Positions 3,199 through 39,616 of a stretch of 64,000 bases of DNA are shown piece after piece (position 1 is the first letter of the stretch; every line of letters starts with the position of its first letter). The notes under the pieces are model-generated. The model ran no database searches. It had not been told where the DNA came from and saw only the letters and a program-made list of their open reading frames with translations. The DNA is taken from NCBI GenBank assembly GCA_900544535.1, contig UQVH01000001.1, forward strand, positions 682-64,681. Direction: 5' to 3'. The translations under genes were made by a program, and so were the position numbers. The stretch is from an uncultured Bacteroidales bacterium. Its GTDB lineage: Bacteria; Bacteroidota; Bacteroidia; Bacteroidales; Muribaculaceae.

Positions 3199-3224
3199 AT
3201 ATGTATGTATTTTAAAAAATGTTG

Positions 3225-5945
3225 TCAGAAAGGATTGGCGTAATTGCTGGAGGCGGCGGGAGTCACGCCGGTGAGTTCGAACCAATGCTCGGTTACGCCC
3301 ACCTTCTTGTTGCCGCTTACGTTTATCACGGGACGGGCTCCGGAGTCGGATCCCTTGAACAGGATGCCCCACGGCTCTGAGCCGTCAAAGGCCACCATGT
3401 TTTGTGTATTGACAGTGTTGCCGGTCACCGTGAAAGTGTTGTCGGCGCTGAAGCCTACCACGCGTATGCCGTTCTCACCGGCAGAGATCATGTTGCCCGA
3501 CACGGTGACATCGGCATTGTAGTTCTGGACCTTGACACCGTCCTTCTTGGGGTTCACGATTGTGTTGCCGTTGATAAGGGTAGTGGCCGCTGCGTTGGCC
3601 GGAACCGCTCCGCTGGTGGCGGACATGACGAATACACCATGGTACGGGGCGTTGACTATGGTGTTGCCGGTCACAGTGAGCGGGCCGGAGAAGCCGAGCA
3701 GGTACAGGCCGTTGGCCGAGGTGACGGCCGATGGGGAGAAGGAGACGGTGTTGTCCTTGATGGTGACGTTGCCGTGGGCTCCTCCCGCCTGGAAGCTGAC
3801 AGCTGGCTCAATGAGGTTCGTCATGTTGCAGCCCTCGATTACCATGTTCTCGACTACTGTGCCGTTGGAATGGGCCATGTAGACGCCCTTGGTGTCGAGA
3901 TGGACTCCGGACAGGGTCACGTTGGTCATTTCCTTGGGCTGGTTGCCGATCTCAGTCACACGGAAGCCCACAAGCGGTTGGGAGGAAGTAGGCGTGCCCT
4001 TTATGGTAAGGTTGCGCACTGACTGGGTGGGATCCGCCACCCTGAATTGGGGGAAGGCCACGCCGTCGGCCACCTCTATGGTTATGGCCGTGGGGTTGGC
4101 CAGGGTGGTGCCTATGTTCATGGTGGTCACGGGGGCCATCAGCAGCAGGTTCAGGGGCTTGGCGGGGTTCAGGTCAGTAAGGTCCACGAGGTCCGTGGCC
4201 TCGGATATGGTGACGTTGCCGCCCGCCGCAAGCTGCGCGGCCAAGCCGCCGGCACGGTTGGCGTAGGTTATGGTCACGTTAGTGAAGGTATTGCCGGAAC
4301 CGGTGTTGCTGCCGTAGCCAAAGATCTCTCCGATATGTCCCTCTACCTTGCTGTCGTTCTCGGGCTTGTAGCCGTTCTCAAAGTCCTGAATGAGTGTCAC
4401 ATCCTCCACTGTACAGCCTGAGATGGGACCGCCATTGTTGCAATAACCGGCCACGCCGCCAATGTCGCGGTAGCCCTTGACGGTGGTGTTGCGCACCACG
4501 CAATCGGACACCTTGTCGCCACCGTCCATGTAGCCTACGATGCCGCCGACCTTGTCGCCGTTGTCATACTCTCCGTTGAACATCTCAGGGACGCTGACTA
4601 TGGTGAAGTCCTCTACGGTGCAGCCGGAGATTTCCATACCCACGTTTGAGGAGCTGTAGCCGCAAATGGCGCCTGCGTAATGGGTGGAGTTCACCTTGCC
4701 GCCCACCAGGTTGAGGTTCTTGACTTTGCCGGTGAGGGAGCCGAACAGACCGGCCGTGGCATAGGTGGTGCCGGAAGCGTTCGCGTTCAGGTTGTAGATG
4801 GTGTGGCCGTTGCCGTCGAATGTGCCGGAGAAAGTGATAGACGGGTACGACGCAACGTTGCCCGCCGGGGTCCAGGGCTTGCCGGCCAGGTCTATGTCGG
4901 AGGTGAGGGTCACGGTATAGCCGCTGTAGTGCGTGCCGCCGTTCACGGCCTGGGCGAAGCCGGCGAGCTGCGAGGCAGAGCTTACGGTGACTGTCTTGGC
5001 AGCGTCGTCGACCACGGGAGCCTCAGCCGAACCGTCCCATACGCTCAGGCCAGTGCCGCCGCCGAACTCGGAATCGATGGATATGTTCCAGTTTGTGGTG
5101 GAGCTGAGGAGCTGGCCGTAGAGGTTGGTGCGGAAATTGCGCTTCAGGGGCGCGTTGGGCACCTTCACCGTGTGCGCCGGGGTCTGCGAGGCCCCAGAGG
5201 TGTATGAGTTGATGGTCAGGTCAGACACCGAACCCTCGTCGCCCACAAGCATATAGGCCATGGAGAGGTAGCGGTACCCCCCTGCCACAGGGAAGGTCTC
5301 CTGCGCCGAGGCGGGGAGAGTGGCGGGAAGAGTCACCTGCACGGGATTGGCCGCGGAGCCGTCGGTGAGGTCGAGAGTGGTGCACGCCTCGGCGGTCACG
5401 GACGTGTAGACACCTTCCTGATAGGTGGTGGCCACGCTCGCGTTGTTGAGGTCCGAGGTGCCTATGTTGAGCTGGGCGCAGGGGCGGCTCAGCGTCACCG
5501 AGCGGGTGAGGGCTCCGTCAACCTTCACGCCGTTCTCTATGTAGAAGAATGCGTCGCCGTTGTCATTGTTACCGTTCATGCCGGCATAGTTCACGGTCAC
5601 GAGCCTTCCCTCGGCGCTGAAGGTGTACGGACTGTTGTCCGCCTCGGCCCAGAACACGAAGTCGTAAGTGCCGCCGCTGGCCAGGTCTATGTTCACGTTT
5701 GCCGCCTTGTCCGATAAGGTGGCGGAACCCTGGCTCACGAGCGCGCCATTCTGATAGACCGCATATTTCAGGTTCTTGGCCGTGGTGCCGTCGGCGAAGG
5801 CGCGTGTGCGCATACCCTCGGGCAGCTGCACGCTGAAATGCACGTTGCCGTCGCCGGAGACACCGGGCTGGTCAAGGTCGCTCGAGCAGGAGACCGCGCT
5901 TAGCATAAAGAGGGACACTCCTCCTAAGGTCAGTAATTTGTTCAT
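3225..5945 (-). CDS. Fimbrillin-family/tip-adhesin-like lipoprotein, paralog B, with GLUG-motif repeats and a C-terminal parallel beta-helix-like region
   Basis: MNKLLTLGGVSLFMLSAVSCSS lipoprotein signal. N-terminal domain ~50% identical to paralogs A/C (GDGNVHFSVQLPEGMRTRAFADGTTA...). Central GG(I/V)(V/A)GY repeats (GLUG-like). C-terminal NTIVN/TVSGN/TVTGNTV beta-helix repeats. Confidence 0.6.
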   Translation of the reverse strand: MNKLLTLGGVSLFMLSAVSCSSDLDQPGVSGDGNVHFSVQLPEGMRTRAFADGTTAKNLKYAVYQNGALVSQGSATLSDKAANVNIDLASGGTYDFVFWAEADNSPYTFSAEGRLVTVNYAGMNGNNDNGDAFFYIENGVKVDGALTRSVTLSRPCAQLNIGTSDLNNASVATTYQEGVYTSVTAEACTTLDLTDGSAANPVQVTLPATLPASAQETFPVAGGYRYLSMAYMLVGDEGSVSDLTINSYTSGASQTPAHTVKVPNAPLKRNFRTNLYGQLLSSTTNWNISIDSEFGGGTGLSVWDGSAEAPVVDDAAKTVTVSSASQLAGFAQAVNGGTHYSGYTVTLTSDIDLAGKPWTPAGNVASYPSITFSGTFDGNGHTIYNLNANASGTTYATAGLFGSLTGKVKNLNLVGGKVNSTHYAGAICGYSSSNVGMEISGCTVEDFTIVSVPEMFNGEYDNGDKVGGIVGYMDGGDKVSDCVVRNTTVKGYRDIGGVAGYCNNGGPISGCTVEDVTLIQDFENGYKPENDSKVEGHIGEIFGYGSNTGSGNTFTNVTITYANRAGGLAAQLAAGGNVTISEATDLVDLTDLNPAKPLNLLLMAPVTTMNIGTTLANPTAITIEVADGVAFPQFRVADPTQSVRNLTIKGTPTSSQPLVGFRVTEIGNQPKEMTNVTLSGVHLDTKGVYMAHSNGTVVENMVIEGCNMTNLIEPAVSFQAGGAHGNVTIKDNTVSFSPSAVTSANGLYLLGFSGPLTVTGNTIVNAPYHGVFVMSATSGAVPANAAATTLINGNTIVNPKKDGVKVQNYNADVTVSGNMISAGENGIRVVGFSADNTFTVTGNTVNTQNMVAFDGSEPWGILFKGSDSGARPVINVSGNKKVGVTEHWFELTGVTPAASSNYANPF

Positions 5946-6037
5946 GTCGGTAACGATTGGTTTAATATGTGATACTTGTTTGATTGGTGATGGAGCGGGT
6001 TGTCACGCCCGCCCCACCTGAGGGTACGTTTATATTG

Positions 6038-8341
6038 TTATTTCGTCCAGACACCGTTGCGGAAAGTCCACCTTCCTGTCTGACCCGGGAACTCGCTCCA
6101 GCTCGCTCCCTCGGCTATGGTGATAGTCACTCCGCTGGCCGTCTGCTTGTCGGGAGCGCCTATCAGCTCGCCACCTGCCACCGTGAGGTTGGAAATGGCG
6201 GTGGCTCCCTGGTTGCCCATGGTGCCTACGGACACCAGGCCGTCAGCGTAACCGTCGCCTGCGGGAATGGTTATCGTGGCCATCTTGGGGTCGTTGCCTG
6301 TGGTGACGTTGCCCACCTGGCGACCGGCGTATGTGGCCGTTATGGCAGCGGAGCCGCCGTGGCAGTTCACGAGAGTGGCTGTGGCCATGCGGCCTATCAC
6401 GCCGCCCGCCACGGAATTGCTTGCGGTGGCGGTCACGGCTGCGGTATTGTCGCAATCACTGACCGTTCCGGAACCGAGCGCTGCGGAGATACCGCCGGCT
6501 ATCATGACTCCGGTCACGGCCCCGCTGTTGGTGCAATAGCTGATGTCGGTCTGCTGGTACTGGCCGAGCGCGCCGAAGATGCCGCCAGCGTTCTGGCCCT
6601 TGACCGCGCCGCTGTTGGAGCAATGGCCTATGGAAAGCACCTCCTGTGACTGGTGGTAGCCCACTATGCCGCCTGCATAACGCTCGTTGCCGGTACCTAC
6701 GTTGCCCTGGTTGTCGCAATTCGTGACGGAGCCGCCCTTGCCTACATAGCCCAGGATGCCGCCTATGCCGTCCATGCCTCCGGTGAGGTCGCCGGTGTTG
6801 GTGCAGCCGCTTATCTCAGCACCGCCTATGCTGGTGATGCCGGCGATGCTGCCCACCTTCTTGGCTCCGGACACCGCGCCGCTGTTGGTGCAGCCGCTCA
6901 CCTTGTCGGACTGGCCGTACAGACGGCCCACTATGCCGCCGGCGGCCTGCCCGGCGTTGATGGCCACGCCGTTGTTGATGCAGTTCTCGATGGTGCCGCC
7001 CGCCAGGGTAACGCCCACGATGGCTCCGGCATAGTCCTCGGAGGAGACGCTGCCGCCCACTATCTCAACATTCTTCACCGTGCCGCCGCGCACCACGCTG
7101 AACAGGCCTGCTCCGTAGTTGTCGCCGGTGGCCGTCACGTTCAGGTTCATGATCTGATGGCCGGCGCCGTCGAAAGTGCCGGAGAAACCGCCGGTGGAGC
7201 TTGAACGTGCTATGTCGCCTATCGGAGTCCAAGGATGGCCGGCCAGGTCAAGGTCGTCTGCCAGAGTCACCGTATATCCGTCAAACGTGTTGCCGCCGTT
7301 CACCAGCTTGGCAAGGCCGGCGAGCTGCGAGGGAAGGTTCACGGTCACCGTCTTGGCCACATCGTCTATGACGGGGGAGGTGGCCGTAACGCCGTCCCAT
7401 ATCTCCATGAGGTAGTCGTCCTCCTCATATCCGGGAACGATGACTATCTGCAGGTTCGCCGGGCTGGTGAGCAGGGAGCCGTAGATGTTCGTGCGGTAGT
7501 TGCGCTGTACCGGCACGTTGCTCACAGGCAGCGTCTGAGTGTTGGCCACAGTGCCGTTCCAGAAAGTGAACTCAGTGTCGATAACCTGTTTTTCAGACGA
7601 AGTCAGGATGTAATCCATGGAAATCCAAGTGTATGGATTGTTCTGGGAGGGATTCGGGTTGTAGGGGAATGTCTCGCCGGAGGTGAGGGTGGCGAGAGCG
7701 TTGGCGAAGATCACCGTCTGCTCATCGTCGACCGTGCCGTCCGAGAGGTTCAGCGTACCGTAGGCTGTGGTGCTAAGGCTAACGCCCATCCCTGCCGCAT
7801 ATGCCTTCTGCACGGCGTCGGTGGTCATGTCGTCCGTGCCCAGGTTCACCTGCGCGAAGGGGCGGCGAAGCTCCACGGTCTCGTTGATGGGGCCCGTAAC
7901 GTCGAACACGCGCGAGGCGAAGAACGCGTCGCGGCTCTCGTCGGAGTTCGTCAGGCCCGTGTAGTCGACCTTGATGCTCTTGCTCTCCGGCTTGAACTCG
8001 TAGAACGTGTTGCCCGGGGCGTCCGCCCAGAACAGAAGCTCGTAGCTCTTGCCGTTAACCAGCTTCAGGTCAACGGTGGCCGTCAGAGTCGTGGGGTCGA
8101 AGCTCACCTGGTCCTCGCTCAGGGTCACCAGCTCGTCAGTGGCCTTGTCGTAGACCGCGTAGGTAAGCGTCGAGGCCGTAGTGCCGTCGGAGATGGCGCG
8201 CGTGCGCATCTGCTCCGGCAGCTTCACTGTGAAATGCACGTTGCCGTCGCCGGTGATTCCCGGCTCGTCAATCTCGCTCGAACAGGAGGCTGCGCCGAGC
8301 ATAAGGGCGGCAGCGCCTGTGCATAGGAGGATTTTCTTCAT
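6038..8341 (-). CDS. Fimbrillin-family/tip-adhesin-like lipoprotein, paralog C, with GLUG-motif repeats
   Basis: MKKILLCTGAAALMLGAASCSS lipoprotein signal. First ~300 aa nearly identical to paralog A. C-terminal part is rich in AGGIVG/GGILGY/AGGISAA GLUG-type repeats and CxNxG turns. Confidence 0.6.
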   Translation of the reverse strand: MKKILLCTGAAALMLGAASCSSEIDEPGITGDGNVHFTVKLPEQMRTRAISDGTTASTLTYAVYDKATDELVTLSEDQVSFDPTTLTATVDLKLVNGKSYELLFWADAPGNTFYEFKPESKSIKVDYTGLTNSDESRDAFFASRVFDVTGPINETVELRRPFAQVNLGTDDMTTDAVQKAYAAGMGVSLSTTAYGTLNLSDGTVDDEQTVIFANALATLTSGETFPYNPNPSQNNPYTWISMDYILTSSEKQVIDTEFTFWNGTVANTQTLPVSNVPVQRNYRTNIYGSLLTSPANLQIVIVPGYEEDDYLMEIWDGVTATSPVIDDVAKTVTVNLPSQLAGLAKLVNGGNTFDGYTVTLADDLDLAGHPWTPIGDIARSSSTGGFSGTFDGAGHQIMNLNVTATGDNYGAGLFSVVRGGTVKNVEIVGGSVSSEDYAGAIVGVTLAGGTIENCINNGVAINAGQAAGGIVGRLYGQSDKVSGCTNSGAVSGAKKVGSIAGITSIGGAEISGCTNTGDLTGGMDGIGGILGYVGKGGSVTNCDNQGNVGTGNERYAGGIVGYHQSQEVLSIGHCSNSGAVKGQNAGGIFGALGQYQQTDISYCTNSGAVTGVMIAGGISAALGSGTVSDCDNTAAVTATASNSVAGGVIGRMATATLVNCHGGSAAITATYAGRQVGNVTTGNDPKMATITIPAGDGYADGLVSVGTMGNQGATAISNLTVAGGELIGAPDKQTASGVTITIAEGASWSEFPGQTGRWTFRNGVWTK
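7818..8317. repeat. Direct repeat copy 2: ~500 bp identical to 2673-3172 (5' coding module of paralog C)
   Basis: See copy 1. The overlapping antisense ORFs at 3038..3274 and 8181..8387 translate identically, which confirms nucleotide identity. Confidence 0.8.
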
Positions 8342-8379
8342 AGGTAAAGATGTGTTGGTAAATAATATAGATATGAATT

Positions 8380-9405
8380 TTACTTAATCTCGATATTGAA
8401 ATCACCGTCAAAACCCGGATTGATGCCGATACCTCCGTGCGCCTGCGAGGTGAGAAACTCACCCCTGACTATGGTGGCGCGGCCTCGCTCCACGGGGATG
8501 GTGAGCGAGGGAACCGACGATACAAGCTTGCCCTCAGGATCGTAGATGTCTATGGCCACGTTCACACTCGACTCGGCTCCGTTGATGAAGAAATAGTCGA
8601 AGCCCACGAGCACCTCGTCGTTGTTGATAATCTGCATGGCACCGGAAAACGATACGCCGGTGGCGGAGTCTATGGGACGGTTGCGGAATATGCTGTACTC
8701 CACCGGGAGGAACACCGGATAACGCAACACAGCCTTGTAACTGTTGAAATCGATGGCAGGCGCCTGCGACACGTCTGAACTCTCGGTGCTTTTGCGGCGC
8801 GTCTCCTGCTCTATGAACTCGGCCAAATCTGTGGATAGGAAAGCGTATGCGGTGAGCGGTCTCTTGAGCGTGACGTCGAACTCCACGTCCACCAACTCGT
8901 CCACCGACGAGGGCACCGAGGCATGGAACATCCCCTGAAAAGCGTCCTTCAGCTCGCTGTCCCCACGGTACGGGGTCAGCAGCTTTATGGAGGAGAAGAT
9001 GTCCGCGTCGTAGAACAGGCTGCGCTCCGTGGAGGAGTCTATGAAGTCGCTCCATACGTACACGTCATATTCCCCGGCCGGCAGATCGATGCGTGTGGTG
9101 AAGTCCGCCAGAGTGACATCGCTCCTCACCTCTGTGTAGCGTGCCACCGGGACCTCGGTGGTGCCTGCGGGGTACACCTCGTATATGTAGCGTACCGCGA
9201 CGCCGTTCCACACGGAAGGAGCCTCCGCACCAGAACCGTCGCGCGTGTTGTAATAGAAATCGAAGAGTCGCCAGGGCAGCTCGTGGCGCACCACAAGGCG
9301 CGCGCCGCGCATGGCGGGAGGCTCAGGCCACTCATGCACGCATGAGGAAAAGCCGAGCGCCAGCAATACGGCAAGGCATACCATAGTCACAATACGGCGC
9401 ATCAT
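8380..9405 (-). CDS. Lipoprotein, putative FimB/Mfa2-like pilus anchor/accessory subunit
   Basis: Lipobox LGFSSC. About 340 aa. Sits between the DUF3575 gene and the fimbrillin paralogs, as in Bacteroidales Mfa-type operons. ATGA start/stop overlap with the upstream gene at 9402-9405. Confidence 0.4.
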   Translation of the reverse strand: MMRRIVTMVCLAVLLALGFSSCVHEWPEPPAMRGARLVVRHELPWRLFDFYYNTRDGSGAEAPSVWNGVAVRYIYEVYPAGTTEVPVARYTEVRSDVTLADFTTRIDLPAGEYDVYVWSDFIDSSTERSLFYDADIFSSIKLLTPYRGDSELKDAFQGMFHASVPSSVDELVDVEFDVTLKRPLTAYAFLSTDLAEFIEQETRRKSTESSDVSQAPAIDFNSYKAVLRYPVFLPVEYSIFRNRPIDSATGVSFSGAMQIINNDEVLVGFDYFFINGAESSVNVAIDIYDPEGKLVSSVPSLTIPVERGRATIVRGEFLTSQAHGGIGINPGFDGDFNIEIK

Positions 9406-10646
9406 CTCTCACCTCCTTTCTTCTTGCCAAGGTCAAAGAGGTAACTGATGGTGAACGTGGCCTGGTCTATCCCGTAGAAGGTGCGCTGCCTGCGCCCCAC
9501 CAGCAGCCCGTCGGCATGGTTCTGGAACAGGTCGTAGTCCAGCTTGTAGACCCCGAAACCGAGCGAGGCCTCCATCTGCCAGCGGCGGTTGCGGCAGAAA
9601 TGGAAGCGGTAGCCCGCCGCCAAGCCGCCGCCCACGGCAGGGGTGCGCTTCAAGTGGTCCTGGTAACGGTACTCGCCTCCGAAGGCCACGTTGTACCACC
9701 CAAGCCCGAAATGCGCACCGGCGAAGAAACCGGCGTTGTCCTTGCGAGGCCACCACCGGAACTCCGGCTGGAACGCCAGGGTGCGGAACTTGGTGTGGCC
9801 CGTGAAATAATTGAGGCCTGAGTAATAGACAGGCAACGTGAAACTCCAATGAGGGGCCAAGTCCACCTCGACCGCTATGTTGGACCACAGCATGGCCCAC
9901 GCCGGTATGTTGGTCTTGAGATACAGGTGTCGCACCCATCCGGTATCGGAGGTGCCTGGCACTACATCCGCACTCGGAGCCTCCGCTTCCGGCTCGGGAT
10001 TGTCCGTCACCACGGTGCGCGGTTCCTCACCCGGCGACATCGTGGTAGAGAACACCTGGTCCGCCACCAGGTCCACCACGGCAGACCGCTGCAGCGGCAG
10101 CACCTTGTCAGCAAGCCATTTCCACGCCTCGCCGCCGTTTATGCCGCGCAGGGTGGCCTGTATCTCGTCGTGCGTGCCGCCTCGGCGTATGGTCTGAAGC
10201 ACCGGGGCGCGATAGGGAGACACGAGATTGTCGGCGAGTATGAGGGAGTCCACATCCTGCCAGGTGCAGACACGCCATGAGGTGCTCATGAGCCGGGACG
10301 GTACAGCGGTATGGGATTCGAGCCATGAGGCTATCGCATGGGCACGCGCGTCGGCCAGCTCGGCATTGAGCCTCGAGGGGCCCTCTGCGGAAGCATAGGC
10401 CCTGACCTTGACCTTGCGCAGTTCGGACAGGGACATGAGCGAGTCAGCCCTTGCGCCTATCTGGCGCAAGGCCGGTGCCAAAGGGGCTATTCCTGACTCG
10501 CCACATTCGAAATGGGGAGTCGGAACGGTGATGAGCTGCACGGAATCGGCTCTCTGCGGCGACGCCACAGACGGCATGCCGCACGCCAATGCCAACAGCA
10601 TGATACAAAGATGTTTCACAGTCCTGTATGGGTATGACGAGAACAC
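9402..10646 (-). CDS. DUF3575-family outer-membrane protein; first gene of the pilus operon
   Basis: The C-terminal half (LKTNIPAWAMLWSNIAVEVDLAPHWSFTLPVYYSGLNYF...LAFQPEFRWW...GAHFGLGWYNV) matches the DUF3575 beta-barrel-like signature that typically precedes Mfa-like fimbrial genes. N-terminal signal sequence present. Confidence 0.5.
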   Translation of the reverse strand: MFSSYPYRTVKHLCIMLLALACGMPSVASPQRADSVQLITVPTPHFECGESGIAPLAPALRQIGARADSLMSLSELRKVKVRAYASAEGPSRLNAELADARAHAIASWLESHTAVPSRLMSTSWRVCTWQDVDSLILADNLVSPYRAPVLQTIRRGGTHDEIQATLRGINGGEAWKWLADKVLPLQRSAVVDLVADQVFSTTMSPGEEPRTVVTDNPEPEAEAPSADVVPGTSDTGWVRHLYLKTNIPAWAMLWSNIAVEVDLAPHWSFTLPVYYSGLNYFTGHTKFRTLAFQPEFRWWPRKDNAGFFAGAHFGLGWYNVAFGGEYRYQDHLKRTPAVGGGLAAGYRFHFCRNRRWQMEASLGFGVYKLDYDLFQNHADGLLVGRRQRTFYGIDQATFTISYLFDLGKKKGGER

Positions 10647-15550: not shown

Positions 15551-15589
15551 AGCGCTGCCGGTGGCATTTCCGCCGGCAGATGCGTTGCA

Positions 15590-15830
15590 GGAGAGGCATC
15601 GCGCCGGACGGCTCCAGGGCCGTCCAGGGAACCGGGTGAGAATCCCGGACAGACCCGCTACTGTAAGTCCGCCAAGGCTCCGCGGAGGGAATGAGAATCG
15701 TTCCTCACCTCCACAGCGCCAACATGGCAACAGCTTCACGGCAATTTTTTATGGTCACTGCAAAAGCCCCCTTGCGAGGGCTGCGGGAAGGCCGCCGCGA
15801 AAGCCGGATAAGTCAGGAAACCTGCCGAAA
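15590..15830 (+). ncRNA. Cobalamin (B12) riboswitch
   Basis: Conserved core elements in the canonical order: AGGGAACCGGGTGAGAATCCCGGACAGACCCGCTACTGTAAG (15617-15658), GGTCACTGC...CGGGAAGGC (15750-15792) and the B12-box AAGTCAGGAAACCTGCC (15809-15826). This tracks E. coli btuB AGGGAAtCCaGTGcgAATCtgGaGCTGAC...CACTG...GGGAAG...GACCTGCC. Confidence 0.7.
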
Positions 15831-16068
15831 CAGACATCCCCCTGATTGCAGCTTTCGTGGACTAAAGCCGGCAACATCACTTTCACAAGCCCCTCCCGCC
15901 CCGCAGACCTCCGGATCTCTTCGTGCGGGCGGCCGCATGCACAGACGCCCTGATAAGGCTCTGCGGCGCACGACCGCCATTGGTTGCTTCCGATGCCGTC
16001 ACCCCGACTATCTGTAAAATCACGGATGTCAGAGTGGCGACCGTTTTTTATTAACCAATATCAATCAC

Positions 16069-19000
16069 ATGAAGATCAAATCTTTACTTCCTCTTTCCCT
16101 GACGCTGTTTGCCGCAGGGTGGGCTTCGGCTACCGACGTCACCGTGACGCTCAACACGACAAGCAAGGCGATGACATTCACCCCGGTTGCGGGCGGCGAG
16201 GCCGTGAACACCGGCGAACCGTCGACAGCATCCAGCCCGGTCTACAAATTCAGCTGCGATCCGGGCGACTATCTCGTCAGCCTCACCGATGCCGCCGGGG
16301 TTCCGACAGGCTCGATCGTGCTGACCGTCGAAGGCGAGTCGCAGAGCACCCGTATCTACAATGTCACTTTCTATGCGGCCAACAAGACCGACGGCGTAGA
16401 GTGGAAGCTCGGCACCGACTATGACATACCCTTCGATCGTATCAGCATCTCAGCCCAAAAAGGAGGCGCCCGCACCGTCACTCCGGTGAAATACACCACC
16501 TCCGCCCGCACAAGCGTGACCGTCCCCGCCCTTCAGGGCGACACCTATCAGGCTGTCTTCATCCCGCTCGGAGCAAATGCGGAAACCAACGCTCCAAGCA
16601 CCCAGAGCGGTACGGTAACGGGCAACCGATCTGTCTCCTGCACTCTGCCCGCTTACGTGAAATTCTCGCTGACAGCACCGAAAGACGCTGCTGTTGTCGT
16701 GGCCGAGAAACCCGGTTCGCGCCACTATGTCCCCTTCACCGAGTATGACCCCGTCTCAGCCATCGAATCGGGCAATGACATGGTCTATACTTACAGTCTG
16801 CCTCAGTCAAGCAACTACAACTACCGTGTATCGCGCAAAGGCAGCATCACCACAGCCGGAATTTTCGATCCCTCGAAGGGCGACATCACTGTCAGCGAAG
16901 CCGAGCTGAGCGCCTATACCTCGGATTATTACAATCACGACGTAACTGCCAACAGCGGCTACAACTATGCCGACATCTATCTCAACATCAATCCGCAGGG
17001 CCATCTTTTCATGAAGCCCGACGGAGAGTTTCACCTCGTCAACCTGCGCACATGGCAGCTGACCAACAGCGTGACAGCCAACTATTTCCTTGAACCTGAC
17101 TATCATTACACTGTGCTCAACACCGAATTCAAGCCCGACAACTCAGTGGTTGAGATCAGCGAAAAAGGTTTGCTGAAAGCCAAATCGGAGGGCACGGCCA
17201 TCGTGCAGGTGCATTACGATGCCATGAACGCCGAACTTGCAGGCGGTAAGCTCTGGAGCTGTATATGGGCCGAAAACGTCGGTACATTCGTCGTCACCGT
17301 AGGCGACAAGGCCGAGGGGATCAAGAGCAACATGAAGCTCCCCTACGAACAGCCCAACCGCACGGGCGAGATCGACGCCGAACATGATATTTTCTATTAT
17401 CCCGAAGGCGGCGACGGTTTCGACTTCACTTTCACCCCCGAAGGCGTATCGGCTGTGACAGTAGCCAATCCCTCGGTCGATCTCACTGCCAACACCCTCT
17501 CCTACCCCGACGGATTCTCGGCCAAAAACGTCACCAAGAACGCTGACGGCTCATATACGGTACATCTGACCTATGGCCGCAATATCGTCTGCCTGACTGA
17601 CGGCGCAGGCAAGAGCATCTATCAGGTAATGTCGGCCAAGCCCGTAAGCTATACTTACGGTCAGGAGATCCGCAATGACAAATATATCCTCCCCGGCGAC
17701 AAAGTTGTCGTGAACTACAAGGGTCTCTATCACGATGCAGGCAAACTTGCAGCCATCTACAACCAGGGGTGTACTCCGCAATATACCACAATTCCCGAAG
17801 GCTACGACAGCAAGAGTGTGGCAGGTTCAGGAGGACAGTATAATTTCGCCGCCCTGCAAAAGACCACCGTTACTCTCAAACCCGACCAGAAAGCAGGCAA
17901 ATTCGAACTCCGCGACGGACGTCTGACATTCGGCGGTTTCGGCGACAAACTCGGCGGCCACCGCGACATCGACTATCTGACGGGCCGCAACCCCAACTTC
18001 ACCGCTTCGGCACAAAGCCAGCTCGCGGGTGTGATCCCCGACATCTCGTTTGATACCGACGACTTCACTGACGGCATGGAGCTTTCCCTGCGCCTCGAAT
18101 ACGGCAAAAACGCCACTCCGGTGTCATTGGCCGCAGCCAAAGTGTTTCTCGGCGATGATATGACCATCACAAGCTCCGATGAAAAGGTGGCTACCGTGGA
18201 CGCCAACGGCAAGGTCGTTGCTGTCAAGGACGGCACGACAGTCATCACCTATTCAAGCGCCGCGGGCGACAAGAAATTCACCTGCAAAGTTGAAGTCTGG
18301 AGCGTCAAGGTCGAGGGAATCGCATTCAAAGATCCGGTATTTGAGGCCAAGGCATCGGCAACAGGTTACTCATCCATCAATCTCGGAGTGGTATGGACTC
18401 CGGCCAACGCGTCCAACAAAAATGTGACCTACAAGCTCTCCAACCCCGATGTCGTCGAACTGCGCGACGGAAGATATTTCTATACCCTCAAAGGGGTTGC
18501 CGGAGAAACCGAAGTGACGGCAACATCCGAGGACGGAGGCTATACAGCCTCATGCCGACTGATAGTCCGCATGAGCCTCAACAAACTTTCGCTTGACAAA
18601 TCCGAGGCCACTCTGACCGTCGGCGAGACTCTGACCCTCAATCCGGTGTACAAGCCTGAAAACACCGATCCGAAGTTCAGGGGCGTCATCTGGACTTCGA
18701 GCGATCCGAAAGTGGCAAACGTGGATGAAAACGGTCTTGTGACCGCTCTTGCAGAAGGTACAGCGACCATTCAGGCTACATCCGACCAAAGCTCTTACAA
18801 ATATGCCCGCGCCACCGTCACCGTGGTCAAGGACGAATCGGGTATCAAGAACGTCAGCACCGCCACGGTTGTCAAGGCCTGGCCGAACCCGTTCACCGAT
18901 TATATTATGGTGGAAAGCCCAGTGGCTGCTACCGCAGAGGTCTACAATCTCCAGGGCGCGCTGCTGATCAGCACCGGGATCGAGGCCGGACAGAACCGCA

Positions 19001-19077
19001 TCGACACCTCGGCTCTCGCACCGGGTCTCTACCTCGTGCGCATCGGCTCAGAAACCGTGAAGATGATACGCAAGTAA
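16069..19077 (+). CDS. Secreted cell-surface protein with tandem Big_2 (bacterial Ig-like) domains and a T9SS C-terminal sorting domain
   Basis: Signal peptide MKIKSLLPLSLTLFAAGWASA. Three Big_2-like repeats at ~aa 680-870. C-terminal AWPNPFTDYIMVE...VYNLQGALLI...LAPGLYLVRI...KMIRK matches the T9SS type A CTD. Confidence 0.75.
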   Translation: MKIKSLLPLSLTLFAAGWASATDVTVTLNTTSKAMTFTPVAGGEAVNTGEPSTASSPVYKFSCDPGDYLVSLTDAAGVPTGSIVLTVEGESQSTRIYNVTFYAANKTDGVEWKLGTDYDIPFDRISISAQKGGARTVTPVKYTTSARTSVTVPALQGDTYQAVFIPLGANAETNAPSTQSGTVTGNRSVSCTLPAYVKFSLTAPKDAAVVVAEKPGSRHYVPFTEYDPVSAIESGNDMVYTYSLPQSSNYNYRVSRKGSITTAGIFDPSKGDITVSEAELSAYTSDYYNHDVTANSGYNYADIYLNINPQGHLFMKPDGEFHLVNLRTWQLTNSVTANYFLEPDYHYTVLNTEFKPDNSVVEISEKGLLKAKSEGTAIVQVHYDAMNAELAGGKLWSCIWAENVGTFVVTVGDKAEGIKSNMKLPYEQPNRTGEIDAEHDIFYYPEGGDGFDFTFTPEGVSAVTVANPSVDLTANTLSYPDGFSAKNVTKNADGSYTVHLTYGRNIVCLTDGAGKSIYQVMSAKPVSYTYGQEIRNDKYILPGDKVVVNYKGLYHDAGKLAAIYNQGCTPQYTTIPEGYDSKSVAGSGGQYNFAALQKTTVTLKPDQKAGKFELRDGRLTFGGFGDKLGGHRDIDYLTGRNPNFTASAQSQLAGVIPDISFDTDDFTDGMELSLRLEYGKNATPVSLAAAKVFLGDDMTITSSDEKVATVDANGKVVAVKDGTTVITYSSAAGDKKFTCKVEVWSVKVEGIAFKDPVFEAKASATGYSSINLGVVWTPANASNKNVTYKLSNPDVVELRDGRYFYTLKGVAGETEVTATSEDGGYTASCRLIVRMSLNKLSLDKSEATLTVGETLTLNPVYKPENTDPKFRGVIWTSSDPKVANVDENGLVTALAEGTATIQATSDQSSYKYARATVTVVKDESGIKNVSTATVVKAWPNPFTDYIMVESPVAATAEVYNLQGALLISTGIEAGQNRIDTSALAPGLYLVRIGSETVKMIRK

Positions 19078-19104
19078 ACACCTATGTGAATATATATAAA
19101 GAAG

Positions 19105-19130
19105 AAGGCTGTCTCACGACAGCCTTTATT
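19105..19130 (+). terminator. Rho-independent terminator after the T9SS cargo gene
   Basis: AGGCTGTCtcacGACAGCCT hairpin followed by TTTATT. Confidence 0.5.
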
Positions 19131-19372
19131 CATTTAATAAACCAATCATTATCACATTTCTTGCAATGGAAAAAGTAATTTTGCTATGTACTTATTAAAC
19201 GCATGGCCGGAGCAATGGTTCACCGAAAATCAAAAAAATTTCTATTTATTTTTAATTTTTTTGCCAACATCCCTAAAAATCGCTAACTTAGCAATCTGAA
19301 AAAATCGGCGGAGAGGGCTATGTTTAACTCATTTTAGCACATATGTGCACGGTTATTGCCCGACCTCCGCAT

Positions 19373-19380
19373 TAACTTTG
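19373..19380 (+). promoter_or_regulatory. -7 box TAACTTTG for recA
   Basis: TAnnTTTG consensus ~38 nt upstream of the recA ATG. Confidence 0.4.
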
Positions 19381-19417
19381 CATCATAAACAATTAGACCA
19401 TAGAAACAAAAACCGAC

Positions 19418-20629
19418 ATGGAAAAGAAAAAGACTCCCATCAAGGCCCCGAAGGACAAAGAGCTCGACCCGATGAAGGCGAAACTCAATGCCCTCAACCA
19501 GGCGCTTGGAAACATAGAGAAAAACTTTGGCCGCGGGGCAATCATGAAACTCGGCGATGAAAACATCGAGGATGTGGAAGTGATCCCCACCGGCTCCATC
19601 GGACTTAACTACGCCTTGGGCGTCGGCGGCTATCCGCGCGGCCGAATCATCGAGATCTACGGTCCGGAATCGTCAGGCAAGACGACCCTTGCCATCCATG
19701 CCATAGCCGAGGCTCAGAAAGCGGGCGGAATCGCCGCCATCATCGACGCCGAACATGCCTTCGACCGCTTCTATGCCGAGAAATTAGGCGTGGACGTCAA
19801 CAACCTTTTCATGGCCCAGCCCGACAACGGCGAGCAGGCTTTGGAGATCGCCGAGCAGCTGATCCGCTCATCGGCTATCGACATACTCGTGATCGACTCC
19901 GTGGCCGCACTGACTCCCAAGAGCGAGATCGACGGCGATATGGGCGACAAGAACGTGGGTGTGCAGGCGCGTCTGATGTCGCAGGCCATGCGCAAGCTGA
20001 CCGGCACCATCTCCCGCACTAACACAACCTGTATATTCATCAATCAGCTGCGCGAGAAGATCGGCGTGATGTTCGGTCCGTCGGAAACGACCACCGGCGG
20101 CAACGCGCTGAAATTCTATGCTTCGGTGCGCATCGACATCCGTCCGAGCACAGCGATAAAGGACGGCGACGACGTCCTCGGCAAGCTGACCAAGGTGAAG
20201 GTGGTGAAGAACAAGGTTGCGCCTCCATTCAAGCGTGCCGAATTCGACATCATGTTCGGCGAGGGCATCTCGCGCAGCGGCGAGATCATCGACCTGGGTG
20301 TAGATCTCGGTATCATCAAGAAGAGCGGCTCATGGTTCTCGTATAACGACACCAAACTTGCCCAGGGACGCGACGCGGCCAAGCGCGTGATCCGCGACAA
20401 TCCTGAACTTGCCGACGAGCTGGAAGCCCTGATCATGGAGGCCCTCAAGGAGAAGGGGGGCAACCCCGCGGCCAGCAAGAAAAAAGCGGCCTCTGCCGAC
20501 AAGAAAGGCGCCTCAAAGGATAAGGATGATGCCGACGAACCCACAGCCGACGACATCAACGCCATTGCCGACGGCCTTTTTGACGACGAGGATCTCCCCG
20601 ACGATTTCTCGATCGAAGAAGACATCTAA
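19418..20629 (+). CDS. recA: Recombinase RecA with a long acidic C-terminal tail; alternative start at MKAKLN (19472)
   Basis: [23 protein letters not shown] Walker A, L1/L2 loops, and the [15 protein letters not shown] motif. Confidence 0.95.
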
Positions 20630-20654
20630 GAGAAACACACACATACCGAAAAAT

Positions 20655-20976
20655 GTGCTGACGCGAACGGAATCACCCGCGTCAGCGGTTAAAAAGAACG
20701 TGCTGACGCACACGGGCCACGCTGCCCACGTCAGCGGTCGAAAAGAATGTGCTGATGCACACAGGGCCCGCTCGGCCGCGTCAGCGGTCGGAAGAATCCA
20801 GGCCACTGCAAGGGCGCCGTAGGTGTCCGCAGCTGTGGTAAAACAGGACATTACAATCAAAATGAAGCTCCGTAGGAGTGAAACAAGCTGATAAAGTTTC
20901 ACTCCTACGGAGCTTTGTTTTCAAAAACGGATAAATAACCACAGCTGCGGACCGCGATGCGGCCCTTGCAGTGGCC
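20655..20976. repeat. Structured intergenic repeat element, copy 1: three ~48-bp hairpin units plus a large nested hairpin
   Basis: Units are gtgctgacgc...gcgtcagcgg. Then GGCCACTGCAAGGGCGCCGTAGGTGTCCGCAGCTGTGGT ... inner stem agctccgtaggagtgaaac/gtttcactcctacggagct ... ACCACAGCTGCGGACCGCGATGCGGCCCTTGCAGTGGCC. The same element recurs at 61378-61645. Confidence 0.7.
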
Positions 20977-21038
20977 TGAAATCGCCGCACCGCTAACGCG
21001 GCGCCGACGCAACAGGAGGATGTGACGGGTGCCCCGAA

Positions 21039-21992
21039 TCAATAGATCTCTTTTGCGACGCGGCGGACGGATTCGGAGGCCATGAGGGTGTAGAAGTGGA
21101 TACTGGGCACTCCGCGGGCTATCAGTTCGCGACACTGGCCTATGCACCATTCCACGCCCACCTCGCGCACAGCCGCATCATCCTTGCACTTGCGCAGCTC
21201 CGAGGCAAACGGTTCGGGAATGTCTGACCGGAACACGCGCGGAAGCACGTTGAGCTGGTTGGCGAAGACCACGGGCTTGATTCCGGGAATGATCGGCACG
21301 GTGATTCCGGCCTGACGGCAGCGGTCGACGAAGTCGAAATACTTGCTGTTGTCGAAAAACATCTGCGTCACCAAGTAACCGGCCCCGTTGTCGACCTTCT
21401 GCTTGGCATAATAGAGGTCAGAGTCCATGTTGGGGGCCTCCTCGTGCTTTTCGGGATAGCAGGCCATGCCGTAGCTGAAAGGGGTCTCGTTTGGCTCGAA
21501 ACGCTCGCCGTCGGCATAGATGCCGAGGTTGAAGTCATTGACCTGAGCCTGGAGATCGGTGGCATGGAGATTGATTTTCGACGGATCGTCGGACTTCTCA
21601 GGCCCCTTGATGTCGCCGCGGAGCAGCAGCAGGTCGTGGACGCCGAGGAAATTGAGGTCGATCAGGGCATATTCGGTCTCGTCGCGGGTGAAACCCTTAC
21701 AGATGATATGCGGAACGGCGGTTATGCCGTATTTGTTCTGTATGGCCGAGGCTATCGCCACCGAACCGGGGCGCTTGCGCATCTTCTGCGGGCGGAAACT
21801 GCCGTCGGGCATCTCCTTGAAAATCATCTCGCTGTGGTGGGAGGTGATGTTGATATACTTCGGATCAAAATCGCGGAGTTTGTCGATGATGTTGTAGACT
21901 TTCTCGATGCTGTTGCCCTTGAGAGGAGGCAGAATCTCGAAAGAGAAAGCCGTGTGGCCGGGATTGGCCTTAAGATGATCAATTACTCTCAT
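21039..21992 (-). CDS. metF: 5,10-methylenetetrahydrofolate reductase
   Basis: Family-typical N-terminus FSFEILPPLKG and TIM-barrel motifs. Confidence 0.9.
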   Translation of the reverse strand: MRVIDHLKANPGHTAFSFEILPPLKGNSIEKVYNIIDKLRDFDPKYINITSHHSEMIFKEMPDGSFRPQKMRKRPGSVAIASAIQNKYGITAVPHIICKGFTRDETEYALIDLNFLGVHDLLLLRGDIKGPEKSDDPSKINLHATDLQAQVNDFNLGIYADGERFEPNETPFSYGMACYPEKHEEAPNMDSDLYYAKQKVDNGAGYLVTQMFFDNSKYFDFVDRCRQAGITVPIIPGIKPVVFANQLNVLPRVFRSDIPEPFASELRKCKDDAAVREVGVEWCIGQCRELIARGVPSIHFYTLMASESVRRVAKEIY

Positions 21993-22058
21993 ACGTGTGT
22001 ACTATTTCTATTCTATATCCTATCTTTATTCTATCTCTGTTCTGCAATTTCAATCATC

Positions 22059-23333
22059 TCAGCGACGTGTCCATCTGCCGAGCCCGAATAGGCGCCGTCG
22101 GAAAAGTGCCTTGTTGGATGACGCCTCCCTGCATCCGCGGACTATCGCCTTGTCAAAATATCCGATGGCCAGGTCGATGTTCTCGCCGGTGCCGCGGCCA
22201 AATCCGTAGGCCACGCCGAGAGCGTTGAGCACAAGGCCGCACAGAGGGTCCTGAAGCTCGTCGGCATGGGGTCCGGCTTCGGAGAGGTAACGGAAGGCCT
22301 GCGAGTCGTCCCGCGACGTTCCCAGACCGTTCTGAAAGAGGATTCCCAACACTGCGGCCGTCTGCCGGGAAATTTCCTCCGTGCATTCCTCATTGCTGCG
22401 GGCCATAGTCACCCAGCGGTAGGCCTGAGCATAGTCGCACGAGAGATTGCCGCGTCCCTCGAAATAGAAATTTCCCACCTGGAACTGGGCTTTCGGATGG
22501 CCTTCGCGGGCGGCGAGCAGATAGCACTCGAAGGCCTTGTCGAGATCCTCGTCGACACCGTAGCCGCGACCGTAGCAGCAACCGACCTCGTAGGCCGACC
22601 GCTGGTCGCCGAGTTCTACGGCCCGGCGATAGTATTCGAACGCATGAACGTCGTCGTACTCCTCTTCAAGCCACCGGCCGTAGTCGTTGCAGAGCAGCGG
22701 ATCGCCGCTGTCGGCAAGCATCTCCATGTGTTCCTCAAACACGCTGCTGTCCATGTCGGTCAGACCGGACTGATAGATAGTGCGGTAGTTGGCAAAACCG
22801 TAGCTCAGACCGGCTTCGAACGACTGCTGGTAATAGTCGGCCGCTATGGGATAGGCATAGCGCTTGTAGTCGGTCTCGGTGGCGAATTCACCGGCCTTTT
22901 CGGGATCTACACGGCGGTAATCACCCCAGAACATGACGTTGCCGATCATGTAGAGGCAGAAGGCATCACCGTCTTCAGCCTGACCCAGAACCTCGTCATA
23001 GGCCTCCCGAAGCGACCCGAATGGCATCACCTCGCAGACATCAGTCGAAAGCAAGCCGCTGCACAGAGCGCAGAGCACTGCCGAAGCACTGCCGAGCTTC
23101 ACGGCCTTTTCAAGCAGCCTGGCAGCCAAAGCCTCGTCAACCGGGAATCCCGCTCCGCTCCAGACATATCTTTTGCCCAGATGACAGCGGGCAAAATAGC
23201 AGATGGCGTCAGCGTCTCCGGCCTCGGAGGCCCTGCGCAGTATCTCATAGCCCTCGCGCATCTGGCGGGGACTATGGCTCAGCCATATTTTCTGGATAGC
23301 TCTCGCTACTTCGGTTGAGTATCGTCCGTTCAT
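22059..23333 (-). CDS. Sel1-like repeat (TPR-like) protein
   Basis: Multiple Sel1 repeats (A..YG.G.GV..D...A...Y..AA..G...AQ). Confidence 0.65.
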   Translation of the reverse strand: MNGRYSTEVARAIQKIWLSHSPRQMREGYEILRRASEAGDADAICYFARCHLGKRYVWSGAGFPVDEALAARLLEKAVKLGSASAVLCALCSGLLSTDVCEVMPFGSLREAYDEVLGQAEDGDAFCLYMIGNVMFWGDYRRVDPEKAGEFATETDYKRYAYPIAADYYQQSFEAGLSYGFANYRTIYQSGLTDMDSSVFEEHMEMLADSGDPLLCNDYGRWLEEEYDDVHAFEYYRRAVELGDQRSAYEVGCCYGRGYGVDEDLDKAFECYLLAAREGHPKAQFQVGNFYFEGRGNLSCDYAQAYRWVTMARSNEECTEEISRQTAAVLGILFQNGLGTSRDDSQAFRYLSEAGPHADELQDPLCGLVLNALGVAYGFGRGTGENIDLAIGYFDKAIVRGCREASSNKALFRRRLFGLGRWTRR

Positions 23334-35750: not shown

Positions 35751-35762
35751 AACTCCCCGACC

Positions 35763-36686
35763 ATGAAAAGTTTCGACTGTGTCATAGACACCCAACCGAT
35801 GGCCAGGGAGCTGGACCGCGTTTCGCAGCACGTCAACGGGACAACCACGGCGGTTGTCGGCATGAAAGTGGCCGTGCTCAAAGCCGAGGCGGACGCCGCC
35901 GACAATGTCTGCCGCAACGTCAACCGCGGATTCTATTCGCTCATCCACTCGCAGATCTCGCAGAAGATAGCCAAGTGGAAAAGCGAAGTGGACTCTCTGC
36001 TGCTTCAGCTCAACCAGCAGCGCCGCCAGATCAACAACATAAAGGGGCAGATGGAGCGCGACTACGGCTCGATCACCGCCCGCTATACCAAACTGTTCAC
36101 CTCGCTCAACCGCGCCCTCAGGCGCCGCGTCTACGAGCTTGACAAACCCGCTTTCAAGTTTGCCGTCACCGAGATCGACACCCTCTCCAACCGCACCCTT
36201 CAGCTCTCGGCCACCGTGCCTGTCTCCCAGAACGAGTCGCTGCTGACGTCGCAAAAAATCATGGCCTCCAACCTGAAATACCGCGGCAGCCGTGTGATCT
36301 CGCTGATGAAGGATTTTCTCACCGACCTCAACCGCCAGAAGGCAATGACGGGCCGTGTGCTGCTCGACAAGGGCATTTCCACCGGCCTTGAAAACCGGCT
36401 GATCCCCGTGATCGTCTGGGAGGGCTGCGGCGGACGTCTCGAAGGTGATCTTGAGCATTTCACCATGCCTGAGACCTGCCTTTCGGACCGTACACGCAAC
36501 GCCATCACCAACCACATCGCCACATCCAACGTGCAGTTCCCCTGGACGGATGCCGCCGACCCCGACAAGCGCGTGGCCGACGGCTTCAAGGCCATGCTCG
36601 GCGATTTCGAGGCCACCGACCGCATCAAGGAGACGATGGGGCGCCTTTTCGAAGCTAACCGGATTCAAACCTTCAACGCCCGATAG
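35763..36686 (+). CDS. Hypothetical coiled-coil protein (307 aa), paralog 1
   Basis: Shares RQ(I/M)...DYG...ARYTK(L/I)FT.LN..L..RV(Y/F)ELDK.(A/V)F with the next gene. 13-nt gap from the upstream gene. Confidence 0.5.
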   Translation: MKSFDCVIDTQPMARELDRVSQHVNGTTTAVVGMKVAVLKAEADAADNVCRNVNRGFYSLIHSQISQKIAKWKSEVDSLLLQLNQQRRQINNIKGQMERDYGSITARYTKLFTSLNRALRRRVYELDKPAFKFAVTEIDTLSNRTLQLSATVPVSQNESLLTSQKIMASNLKYRGSRVISLMKDFLTDLNRQKAMTGRVLLDKGISTGLENRLIPVIVWEGCGGRLEGDLEHFTMPETCLSDRTRNAITNHIATSNVQFPWTDAADPDKRVADGFKAMLGDFEATDRIKETMGRLFEANRIQTFNAR

Positions 36687-36689
36687 CCT

Positions 36690-37700: not shown

Positions 37701-37706
37701 ACCATC

Positions 37707-38923: not shown

Positions 38924-39616
38924 TTATATCTGCAATTTTCTTGTTAGGTAATTATTATTTATTCTTAGCCTTAAAACACATATACCTTTAGGTAACATAT
39001 ATTTATCTATTGTTATCCGAGGCTCGGTGTGCTTTGTCGAATAAACCAATTGCCCTTGCATGTTATAAATTTCAACATTTGCCAACTTTTCCGAGGGATT
39101 ATCTATAATAACCGACACATCCGTAACAGTTATTTCAAAATCATCGCAGACGGATTCTATTTTGCTTTGGCCTAACAAGAGTTCCTTGTCTGCCTCCAAG
39201 ACATAATCATTGGAACATACCGGTATAAACCGAGCTAATAACTCGTTTCTCAATGAATCCTTATAACAGTCAAATCTAAAATATGTGCCCCACGAAACAT
39301 CCACATATTCAGTCTCAATTATTTCATTATCTATTTTTAAATCACGCGCAGATACATATTTTATTGATTCTATATCATTTTGATAGGGACGAGATTTTAA
39401 AATTACGATCCTTTGGGCTCCCTTAATAGAAAATTTCATTTTTAAGCGGCCCTCAATAGAGTATATTTTACCAGGTATAATATCCTCATTATTATAGTTA
39501 TAATCAACCTCCAGCATCTCAAAATCAAAACCATCCGGAAAGTGTTGATTTTGTCCATAAATATTGAGGATGCTACACAAAACAGACAGTATTGATACTA
39601 TTGCACGACCGACCAT
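38924..39616 (-). CDS. Small secreted protein with a T9SS C-terminal sorting domain, in an AT-rich islet
   Basis: Signal peptide. C-terminus VEIYNMQGQLVYSTKHTEPRITIDKYMLPKGICVLRLRINNNYLTRKLQI matches the T9SS CTD pattern. GC is much lower than in the flanks. Confidence 0.5.
   Translation of the reverse strand: MVGRAIVSILSVLCSILNIYGQNQHFPDGFDFEMLEVDYNYNNEDIIPGKIYSIEGRLKMKFSIKGAQRIVILKSRPYQNDIESIKYVSARDLKIDNEIIETEYVDVSWGTYFRFDCYKDSLRNELLARFIPVCSNDYVLEADKELLLGQSKIESVCDDFEITVTDVSVIIDNPSEKLANVEIYNMQGQLVYSTKHTEPRITIDKYMLPKGICVLRLRINNNYLTRKLQI

Follow-up and report, generated by a model that had tools for sequence, protein, structure and literature searches.

A riboswitch-linked, putatively secreted protein of a Muribaculaceae bacterium belongs to a Bacteroidales-wide family encoded with vitamin B12 uptake genes

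Vitamin B12 competition shapes gut communities, and the Bacteroides uptake "relay" (BtuB, BtuG, BtuH, BtuJ, BtuK and BtuL) is known almost entirely from the lipoproteins of B. thetaiotaomicron. Cobalamin riboswitches in Bacteroides repress the Btu genes when cobamide is abundant (PMC13616437), and in the btuK1-btuK2-btuH1 cluster of B. thetaiotaomicron such a riboswitch drives accessory genes only (PMC13616437). DUF4465 (PF14717) is BtuJ, shown by experiment to bind B12 with high affinity (PMC13616437, PMC13398666) and placed by a review at the first capture step (PMC13616437). The Btu accessories in that literature are all lipoproteins, with no mention of type IX secretion system (T9SS) cargo or of Prevotella and Muribaculaceae architectures (PMC13616437). 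Here we describe a gene for a 1002-amino-acid (aa) protein that follows a cobalamin riboswitch in a 64,000-nt stretch of DNA (the window; assembly GCA_900544535.1, contig UQVH01000001.1, positions 682 to 64,681, forward strand) from an uncultured Bacteroidales bacterium of the family Muribaculaceae.

The open reading frame (ORF) lies at 16069-19077 on the plus strand, 225 nt downstream of the riboswitch, and we put at about 0.7 the probability that its product is secreted and belongs to a family of corrinoid-uptake accessories that is uncharacterised and spread across Bacteroidales. As modelled, the family is built on an all-beta module of ~640 aa whose C-terminal 380 aa form a rigid, conserved core, and in this Muribaculaceae lineage the module would be followed by three Big_2 stalk domains and then by a type-A T9SS C-terminal domain (CTD). 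The literature covered here on BtuB, G, H, J, K, L and FCD, including the September 2026 review, the BtuJ1 preprint and the DUF4465 family paper, does not mention the module; a literature search on btuG with Muribaculaceae returned nothing relevant, and within the limited full text available we found no T9SS cargo under a cobalamin riboswitch or in a Btu system. No characterised function covers the protein, which supports the part of an earlier reading of this DNA (the original prediction) that took it for a candidate new factor.

To place the module among B12 genes, we searched for relatives among 5.8 billion proteins and scanned GTDB species representatives, which revealed more than 300 relatives, conserved over aa about 20-660, and at least 374 species-representative genomes encoding one. 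By title, nearly all of the 80 species-representative loci retrieved belong to Bacteroidales or one of its families (Prevotella/Prevotellaceae, Muribaculaceae, Paludibacteraceae and others). Rfam placed a cobalamin riboswitch on the same strand in 7 of 8 sampled loci, and a covariance model built from the Rfam-positive sampled loci and then applied to all 80 detected a same-strand copy ahead of the module gene in 72, with most of the eight negative loci having btuB upstream or being cut by a contig end. We estimate the density of cobalamin riboswitches in Bacteroidales genomes at roughly one per few hundred kb, at which chance same-strand co-occurrence within 8 kb would be ~1% per locus. Between riboswitch and module gene, 58 of the 80 loci held both btuB (called by TonB_dep_Rec and Plug) and a BtuG gene (called by matches to PDB 8BAZ, 8BMY and 8BLW at E about 1e-13), and DUF4465 was fused to the module protein or encoded in an adjacent gene in 50. 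In most sampled species of Prevotella/Prevotellaceae, Muribaculaceae and Paludibacteraceae the module gene comes third in the operon, after btuB and btuG, and the module is often fused to BtuJ. With the riboswitch at 72, btuB and btuG at 58 and DUF4465 at 50 of 80 loci, the module shows the linkage of a Btu-regulon accessory; the place in a B12-acquisition regulon that the original prediction had proposed is thereby supported, whereas the BtuG- or BtuH-like fold for which it proposed a comparison is not.

The arrangement in the window is a minority one within this family. A riboswitch directly before the module gene, with no btuB or btuG nearby, was found at nine loci (L001-L004, L014, L038, L044, L060 and L074), eight of which carry a T9SS CTD. 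Four of them (L001-L004, including Duncaniella muris DSM 103720) encode proteins 69-77% identical to the window protein behind riboswitches that score 77.6-85.4 bits by Rfam and 196-203 bits by our own model, and the cultivable D. muris strain combines a 70%-identical ortholog with a canonical riboswitch. At L005 a 54%-identical Big_2-type ortholog is the fourth gene of a btuB-btuG-module-module operon, which links the stand-alone arrangement to the operon one. The original prediction's contrast, that the riboswitch governs a surface protein rather than BtuB, accordingly holds in this Muribaculaceae sub-lineage only, the usual home of the family being the btuB-btuG operon.

Further variations on these arrangements were observed across the loci. 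Tandem module genes occur at L005 (7-8003: btuB, btuG, a 734-aa module-only gene and the Big_2-type ortholog), and at L019 (8001-14804), where the two paralogs measure 1121 and 1139 aa and their C-terminal ~400 aa matched nothing in Pfam, NCBIfam or the PDB. At three stand-alone loci (L038, 9889-11607; L060, 10554-12290; L044, 7281-8273) DUF4465, with or without DUF4988, is encoded by the gene that follows, which indicates that BtuJ-type binders travel with the module even when unfused. Three loci (L016, L029 and L057) have two same-strand cobalamin riboswitches each, recalling the dual-riboswitch operon 1 of B. thetaiotaomicron.

Evaluating the module itself, we found that it recurs in proteins of very different build. 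The C-terminal appendages of relatives range from Big_2 plus CTD through one or two DUF4465 domains, FN3 or GLUG to none at all, and module-only proteins include P0058, P0086, P0099 and the 734-aa product at L005. Many homologs begin at about aa 195 and some lack the first two beta-sandwich domains. A HMMER scan of 1.84 billion representatives returned 314 clusters at E<=1e-30 in which the core was matched almost always end to end, within proteins of 460-3,700 aa; because such end-to-end matches fall in such varied proteins, the core behaves as a discrete domain. AlphaFold2 (AF2), run on a 67-sequence alignment, modelled the whole module as an all-beta multidomain chain (predicted local distance difference test score, pLDDT, 89.5; predicted template modelling score, pTM, 0.80). 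The N-terminal part, aa 22-284 (16132-16920, plus strand), is predicted to hold three beta-sandwich domains at pLDDT about 90, and the family-defining core, the 381 residues of aa 285-665 (16921-18063, plus strand), was modelled as one rigid all-beta unit (pLDDT 92.2, pTM 0.92). Across 78 sequences the core keeps 35 invariant columns, among them many Asn, Tyr, Trp, His, Asp and Arg; examples are N306, N308, R327, W329, W400, E402, N403, D436 and D440, with Y443, H555, K559, N565, Y591, H631, R632 and N643 further along.

Comparisons with described proteins returned no counterpart to this module. Residues 22-665 matched no Pfam or NCBIfam model, curated NCBIfam models named none of seven diverse family members, and phmmer and a profile hmmsearch of the PDB gave no match for aa 1-665 at E<=1. 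Foldseek of the whole module against the PDB yielded generic multi-Ig chains only, at template modelling (TM) scores below 0.2 that are uninformative, and Btu chains were absent among the top 50-60 structural matches listed. By hhalign the core scored 0.5% against DUF4465, 0.6% against BtuG and 1.0% against BtuK-like sequences, and the core or whole module against DUF4465 gave 0.5-0.7%, compared with 72% for a control of BtuG against BtuK-like. On the predicted structure, then, Ig-like beta-sandwiches follow one another along the module, and neither by sequence nor by fold could it be matched to BtuG, BtuH, BtuJ or BtuK; the fold comparison with BtuG and BtuH that had been proposed for the N-terminal region gave no resemblance. 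The C-terminal extensions of two operon homologs without DUF4465 (L049 and L019) likewise found no PDB or Pfam match. Relatives of the module were absent from a scan of viral contigs, and the family therefore does not appear to be phage-associated.

Set beside the described Btu components, the protein of the window resembles each in its setting or build and departs from several of them in its structure. Like BtuJ it would be a riboswitch-controlled Btu accessory of extracellular location, and BtuJ is fused or adjacent to the module in most relatives; unlike BtuJ, an augmented beta-jellyroll lipoprotein, it is a multi-Ig non-lipoprotein and predicted T9SS cargo, it has no DUF4465 (no PF14717 match at E<=0.1) and its core is non-homologous (hhalign 0.5%). 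BtuG and BtuK share operons of the btuB-btuG-module type and riboswitch control with the family, and a second riboswitch of this species drives a BtuK-like gene, but both are seven-bladed beta-propeller lipoproteins, whereas the module consists of predicted beta-sandwiches without a propeller (hhalign 0.6-1%). BtuH2 (PDB 7BIZ: three PKD/Ig domains and a C-terminal B12-binding domain) resembles the window protein, as predicted, in being a large surface protein of Ig-type domains and a conserved unit, encoded in a B12 riboswitch locus. The likeness to BtuL lies in a large, repetitive and presumably extracellular protein co-regulated with B12 uptake, and the difference, as BtuL is described in the review, in its being a lipoprotein with receptor L-domain repeats where the window protein is Ig-type T9SS cargo by prediction. 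With type-A CTD cargo the protein shares a C-terminal PF18962/TIGR04183 domain and Ig-like domains ahead of the CTD, and its N-terminus reads as a putative Sec signal peptide. Riboswitch-controlled extracellular accessories for B12 scavenging are thus the known part of this system, and the protein family, the fold arrangement and the predicted export route are the new part.

The features that bear on export are legible in the ORF. Its N-terminus, MKIKSLLPLSLTLFAAGWASA followed by TD, has the n-h-c pattern of a Sec type-I signal peptide by inspection of the translation (aa 1-21, 16069-16131, plus strand; cleavage after ASA), and the start codon and N-terminus are conserved in L001-L004. With no Cys in aa 1-35 there is no lipobox, so the protein does not look like a lipoprotein. 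Downstream of the module, three Big_2 Ig-like domains (about aa 670-925; 18076-18843, plus strand) that are likely a stalk match PF02368 in three stretches (E 5.3e-21; 74.8 bits against a gathering score of 22.8) and match Big_2 domains of PDB 7quz. The type-A CTD and stop codon (aa 938-1002; 18880-19077, plus strand) follow, with aa 938-1001 matching PF18962 (Por_Secre_tail) at 42.4 bits (cutoff 27) and TIGR04183 at 45 bits (cutoff 23), as well as the CTD of PDB 7pzj. The three Big_2 domains and T9SS CTD that had been read from the sequence were therefore recovered, and by inspection the N-terminus is a putative signal peptide. A second CTD-bearing ORF in the window (38924-39616, minus strand, 230 aa, 31 bits with our own CTD profile) suggests that the organism uses T9SS. 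Adjoining it are four ORFs at 33549-38675 (plus strand; 733, 307, 336 and 322 aa) with no Pfam match at E<=1e-5.

Turning to the riboswitch, we scanned the whole 64-kb window by cmscan against Rfam 15 and obtained a single match above gathering, RF00174 at 15586-15843 on the plus strand (full model 1-189, 48.9 bits, E 3.5e-9). This score, on the strand of the downstream gene, clears the RF00174 gathering score of 31.5 bits, and the same aptamer reaches 147.8 bits by the covariance model built in this analysis. Its core GGGAACCGGGUGAGAAUCCCGG...CCCGCUACUGUAAG and the 3' AGUCAGGAAACCUGCC are unchanged among relatives, so the conserved B12 box and core junction sequence of the class are present. 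The expected plus-strand hit is thus significant, and no gene intervenes before the 1002-aa ORF, the 225-nt gap containing nothing btuB-like. Three small ORFs (15561-15845, 15691-16017 and 15984-16424) were considered and rejected as genes, as they overlap the aptamer or leader and the spacer at 15875-15990 is poorly conserved among relatives. What does not hold is the description of the riboswitch as well formed. The cmscan alignment marks P1 mismatches, and the P1 of the window aptamer is not a cognate pair, its 5' strand coming from another riboswitch; a cognate P1 is present in L001-L004 and in the native copy of the gene at L081, which is canonical at 70.8 bits. The original observation is in this sense confirmed in part, all of its elements being present, but with an aptamer that is a hybrid of two riboswitches.

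Independent assemblies locate the join. The exact 1002-aa protein occurs on 8 public contigs. One contig of 162 kb from a human-gut metagenome (L081/L088) agrees with the window at 100% identity over 15626-22077 and is wholly unlike it 5' of 15626, and five short contigs, also 100% identical, start at 15626-15637 and stop at 19163; L081-L084 all align, at 100%, only from 15626-15637 onward. Three contigs with the upstream ThrE gene (L085, L086 and L087) match the window at 99.8-99.99% identity, but only up to 15664. L085 and L081 have one stretch in common, 39 nt at 97% identity, which is the conserved aptamer core GGGAACCGGGUGAGAAUCCCGGACAGACCCGCU at 15626-15664 (plus strand). Judged from these contig breakpoints, the species carries two cobalamin riboswitches, and the window joins the 5' arm of one (RS-A, beside ThrE) to the 3' part of the other (RS-B, native to the 1002-aa gene), which explains the low score and the P1 mismatches of the window aptamer. 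RS-B lies downstream of CysS and a mechanosensitive (MS) channel gene and in L081 has a canonical P1/P2/P3. RS-A scores 70.2 bits for RF00174 in L085 and natively drives a 533-aa protein of unassigned family, then a 683-aa DUF5074 protein that matches PDB 9S6C, which is BtuK1 per the review (PMC13616437); it is thus the head of another accessory-only, btuB-less B12 unit. This RS-A unit, at L085 1288-5317 (minus strand, locus coordinates) with a riboflavin synthase-like gene next, is the native continuation of the window at ~15664.

We consider it probable that the riboswitch-gene adjacency in the window is an assembly chimera, in which two riboswitch loci were fused through the 39-nt aptamer core so that sequence left of ~15626 and right of ~15664 would not be contiguous in the real genome. 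The case is built on Rfam scores and on how far independent assemblies are identical to the window: breakpoints at exactly 15626 and 15664 against at least 6 independent contigs, a junction absent from all 11 independent contigs (0 of 8 with the protein and 0 of 3 with ThrE), short-k assemblies that stop exactly at the junction, and a fall in score from ~70 to 48.9 bits with P1 mismatches. The strong native P1 of RS-A (-27.1 kcal/mol) is lost in the hybrid as well, but the P1 duplex energy of native RS-B is itself only -8.9 kcal/mol, and because this P1 is short and weak the comparison is not decisive; as a test of the hybrid, duplex energy was set aside for want of a clean separation from native RS-B. 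On the other side, a real deletion or inversion by recombination between riboswitch cores in one strain would give identical sequence, and the largest k-mers used by common assemblers exceed 39 nt, the length of the repeat. Weighing these, mis-assembly through the repeat seems the likelier of the two origins. The pairing of riboswitch and gene is real either way, as it is present on the native contig and in four related species (L001-L004). As a practical warning, loci may be mis-joined or recombined through conserved riboswitch cores, which can behave as repeats.

The leader between aptamer and gene carries further conserved structure. Directly 3' of the aptamer, a hairpin GCUUU-CGUGGACU-AAAGC (15851-15868, plus strand) is near-invariant in the window and L001-L004. 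Its loop GUGGAC (15857-15862) is complementary, as read from the sequence, to GUCCGC at 15667-15672, a pairing seen in the window and L003 that carries little weight since it is not clearly compensated in L001; we tentatively regard it as a candidate L5-L13 kissing loop. Nearer the gene, a hairpin at 15997-16039 (-18.8 kcal/mol) and a U6 run at 16044-16049 (together 15997-16049, plus strand) end 19 nt before the ATG and form a candidate intrinsic terminator or expression platform. The position of this hairpin is kept in L001-L004; in L001 and L003 the distance from hairpin and T-run to the ATG is 19-22 nt, and L074 has a comparable terminator. Across all 5 orthologous leaders 18 of its 20 pairs stay standard, of which 9 vary, and two pairs are altered on both sides (15994/16043 and 16010/16027).

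The mechanism we propose is that scarce intracellular cobamide would permit expression of the gene and abundant cobamide would shut it off; because a conserved leader hairpin and U6 follow the aptamer, the shut-off would most likely proceed by premature termination or by occlusion of the start region. The protein would then be exported by Sec and next by T9SS, and would end up either on the cell surface or released from it. Once exported, the module most likely helps to capture corrinoids or to hand them to BtuG-BtuB encoded elsewhere in the genome, and in doing so it may bind corrinoid itself or instead dock or present other Btu components.

Between these last two possibilities, our preference goes to corrinoid binding by the core itself, at somewhat less than even odds and by association with the genes around it. 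A bolder form, held just as tentatively, is that aa 285-665 are a new corrinoid-binding fold unrelated to BtuG, BtuH, BtuJ, BtuK and BtuF and the first class of B12 capture to be delivered by T9SS in place of lipoprotein export. Known Btu binders contact corrin amides with residue types similar to the invariant ones of the core (PMC13616437), and the module-only proteins, together with a dedicated riboswitch on a protein without a known B12 binder, argue for an autonomous B12-related role of the module. The module could instead be a non-binding scaffold or dock, a rigid Ig stalk that holds BtuJ-type domains off the surface or docks onto BtuG-BtuB, with the Big_2/CTD version a degenerate or adaptor form that tethers, for example, vesicles or partner proteins. 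Every domain is an Ig-like beta-sandwich, a fold common in stalks and adhesins; the binding could be left to the bona fide B12-binding DUF4465 domains that most homologs carry; BtuH2 uses PKD/Ig domains as a stalk (PMC13616437); and BtuL is a non-binding accessory (PMC13616437). Stalks, though, are rarely so conserved as this rigid 380-aa unit, in which 35 columns are invariant although the sequences compared share just 41-52% identity with the query core, and both the module-only proteins and the DUF4465-less window protein with its own riboswitch suggest a self-sufficient activity, so we regard the scaffold as rather unlikely.

The protein might also act outside uptake altogether, as a B12-responsive surface adhesin or other factor that engages B12-producing neighbours, host B12 carrier proteins or vesicles, or that serves a B12-sparing function with B12 as a mere regulatory cue. 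Cobalamin riboswitches also govern non-transport genes such as metE and nrd, the Ig-like domains, Big_2 and CTD make an adhesin-like architecture, and neither btuB nor btuG adjoins the gene in this lineage. Such a role is hard to reconcile with a module found in btuB-btuG operons in 58 of 80 species and with BtuJ fused or adjacent in 50 of 80, and we hold it to be improbable.

For the corrinoid-uptake accessory that we favour, several points weigh on the other side. Two Btu proteins under riboswitch control, BtuL and BtuK2, fail to bind cobamide (PMC13616437), and corrinoid binding by the module is suggested indirectly, by the company it keeps. CTDs were detected in 68 of 120 homologs and N-termini are mostly of the signal peptidase I (SPI) type; among homologs P0056-P0094, however, most Prevotella-type fusions of the module with DUF4465 are SPI-type with neither a lipobox Cys nor a detectable type-A CTD, and since many DUF4465-fused homologs are of this kind, surface exposure is less safely predicted for the family as a whole. 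T9SS export of the window protein is predicted from its CTD and from what the 64-kb window holds. Finally, the 5' arm of the window aptamer is foreign to the gene, and a genuine junction might mean impaired regulation in this strain.

Around the gene, the neighbourhood is unrelated to B12 transport, with ThrE, ThrE_2 and LysR upstream (minus strand) and RecA, then MTHFR and Sel1 downstream; no other B12-uptake genes were found among the window's long ORFs, several of which have no Pfam match. Directly past the stop codon, a terminator-like hairpin with a 10-bp stem and T-rich tail (19104-19127, plus strand) marks the 1002-aa gene as a single-gene unit. It overlaps a ~153-nt repeat element (19095-19247, plus strand), which explains why the short contigs stop at 19163 and whose second copy, 86% identical, lies just upstream of the native riboswitch in L081/L088. 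The two direct copies, at L088 5300-5451 and 9027-9179, bracket the riboswitch-plus-gene unit between the MS-channel gene and recA, which suggests that a riboswitch-gene cassette was inserted or duplicated into this intergenic region. Orthologs of 70-77% identity sit in differing neighbourhoods in different species, and together with the bracketing repeat this indicates that the unit behaves as a relocatable cassette. Another repeat, of ~235 nt at 82% identity, is shared by window 61422-61652 and L081 7702-7933 (window ~20770-21001, the recA-MTHFR region). Elsewhere, window 1351-10646 (minus strand) holds four DUF6562 paralogs, some with Beta_helix or GLUG, beside a DUF3575/OmpA-like gene; a stretch of ~900 nt is 90% identical between two of the paralogs, and L085 12581-13493 (window ~7400-8300) accordingly also matches 2269-3180.

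If the module binds or relays corrinoids, it would add a new protein class, and with it a T9SS export route, to B12 scavenging, with consequences for the lineages that dominate rumen, mouse-gut and non-Western human microbiomes. The ortholog in Duncaniella muris DSM 103720 makes such a role directly testable. The new-fold reading, if true, would carry the "extracellular relay" model past Bacteroides and into Prevotella, Muribaculaceae and Paludibacteraceae.

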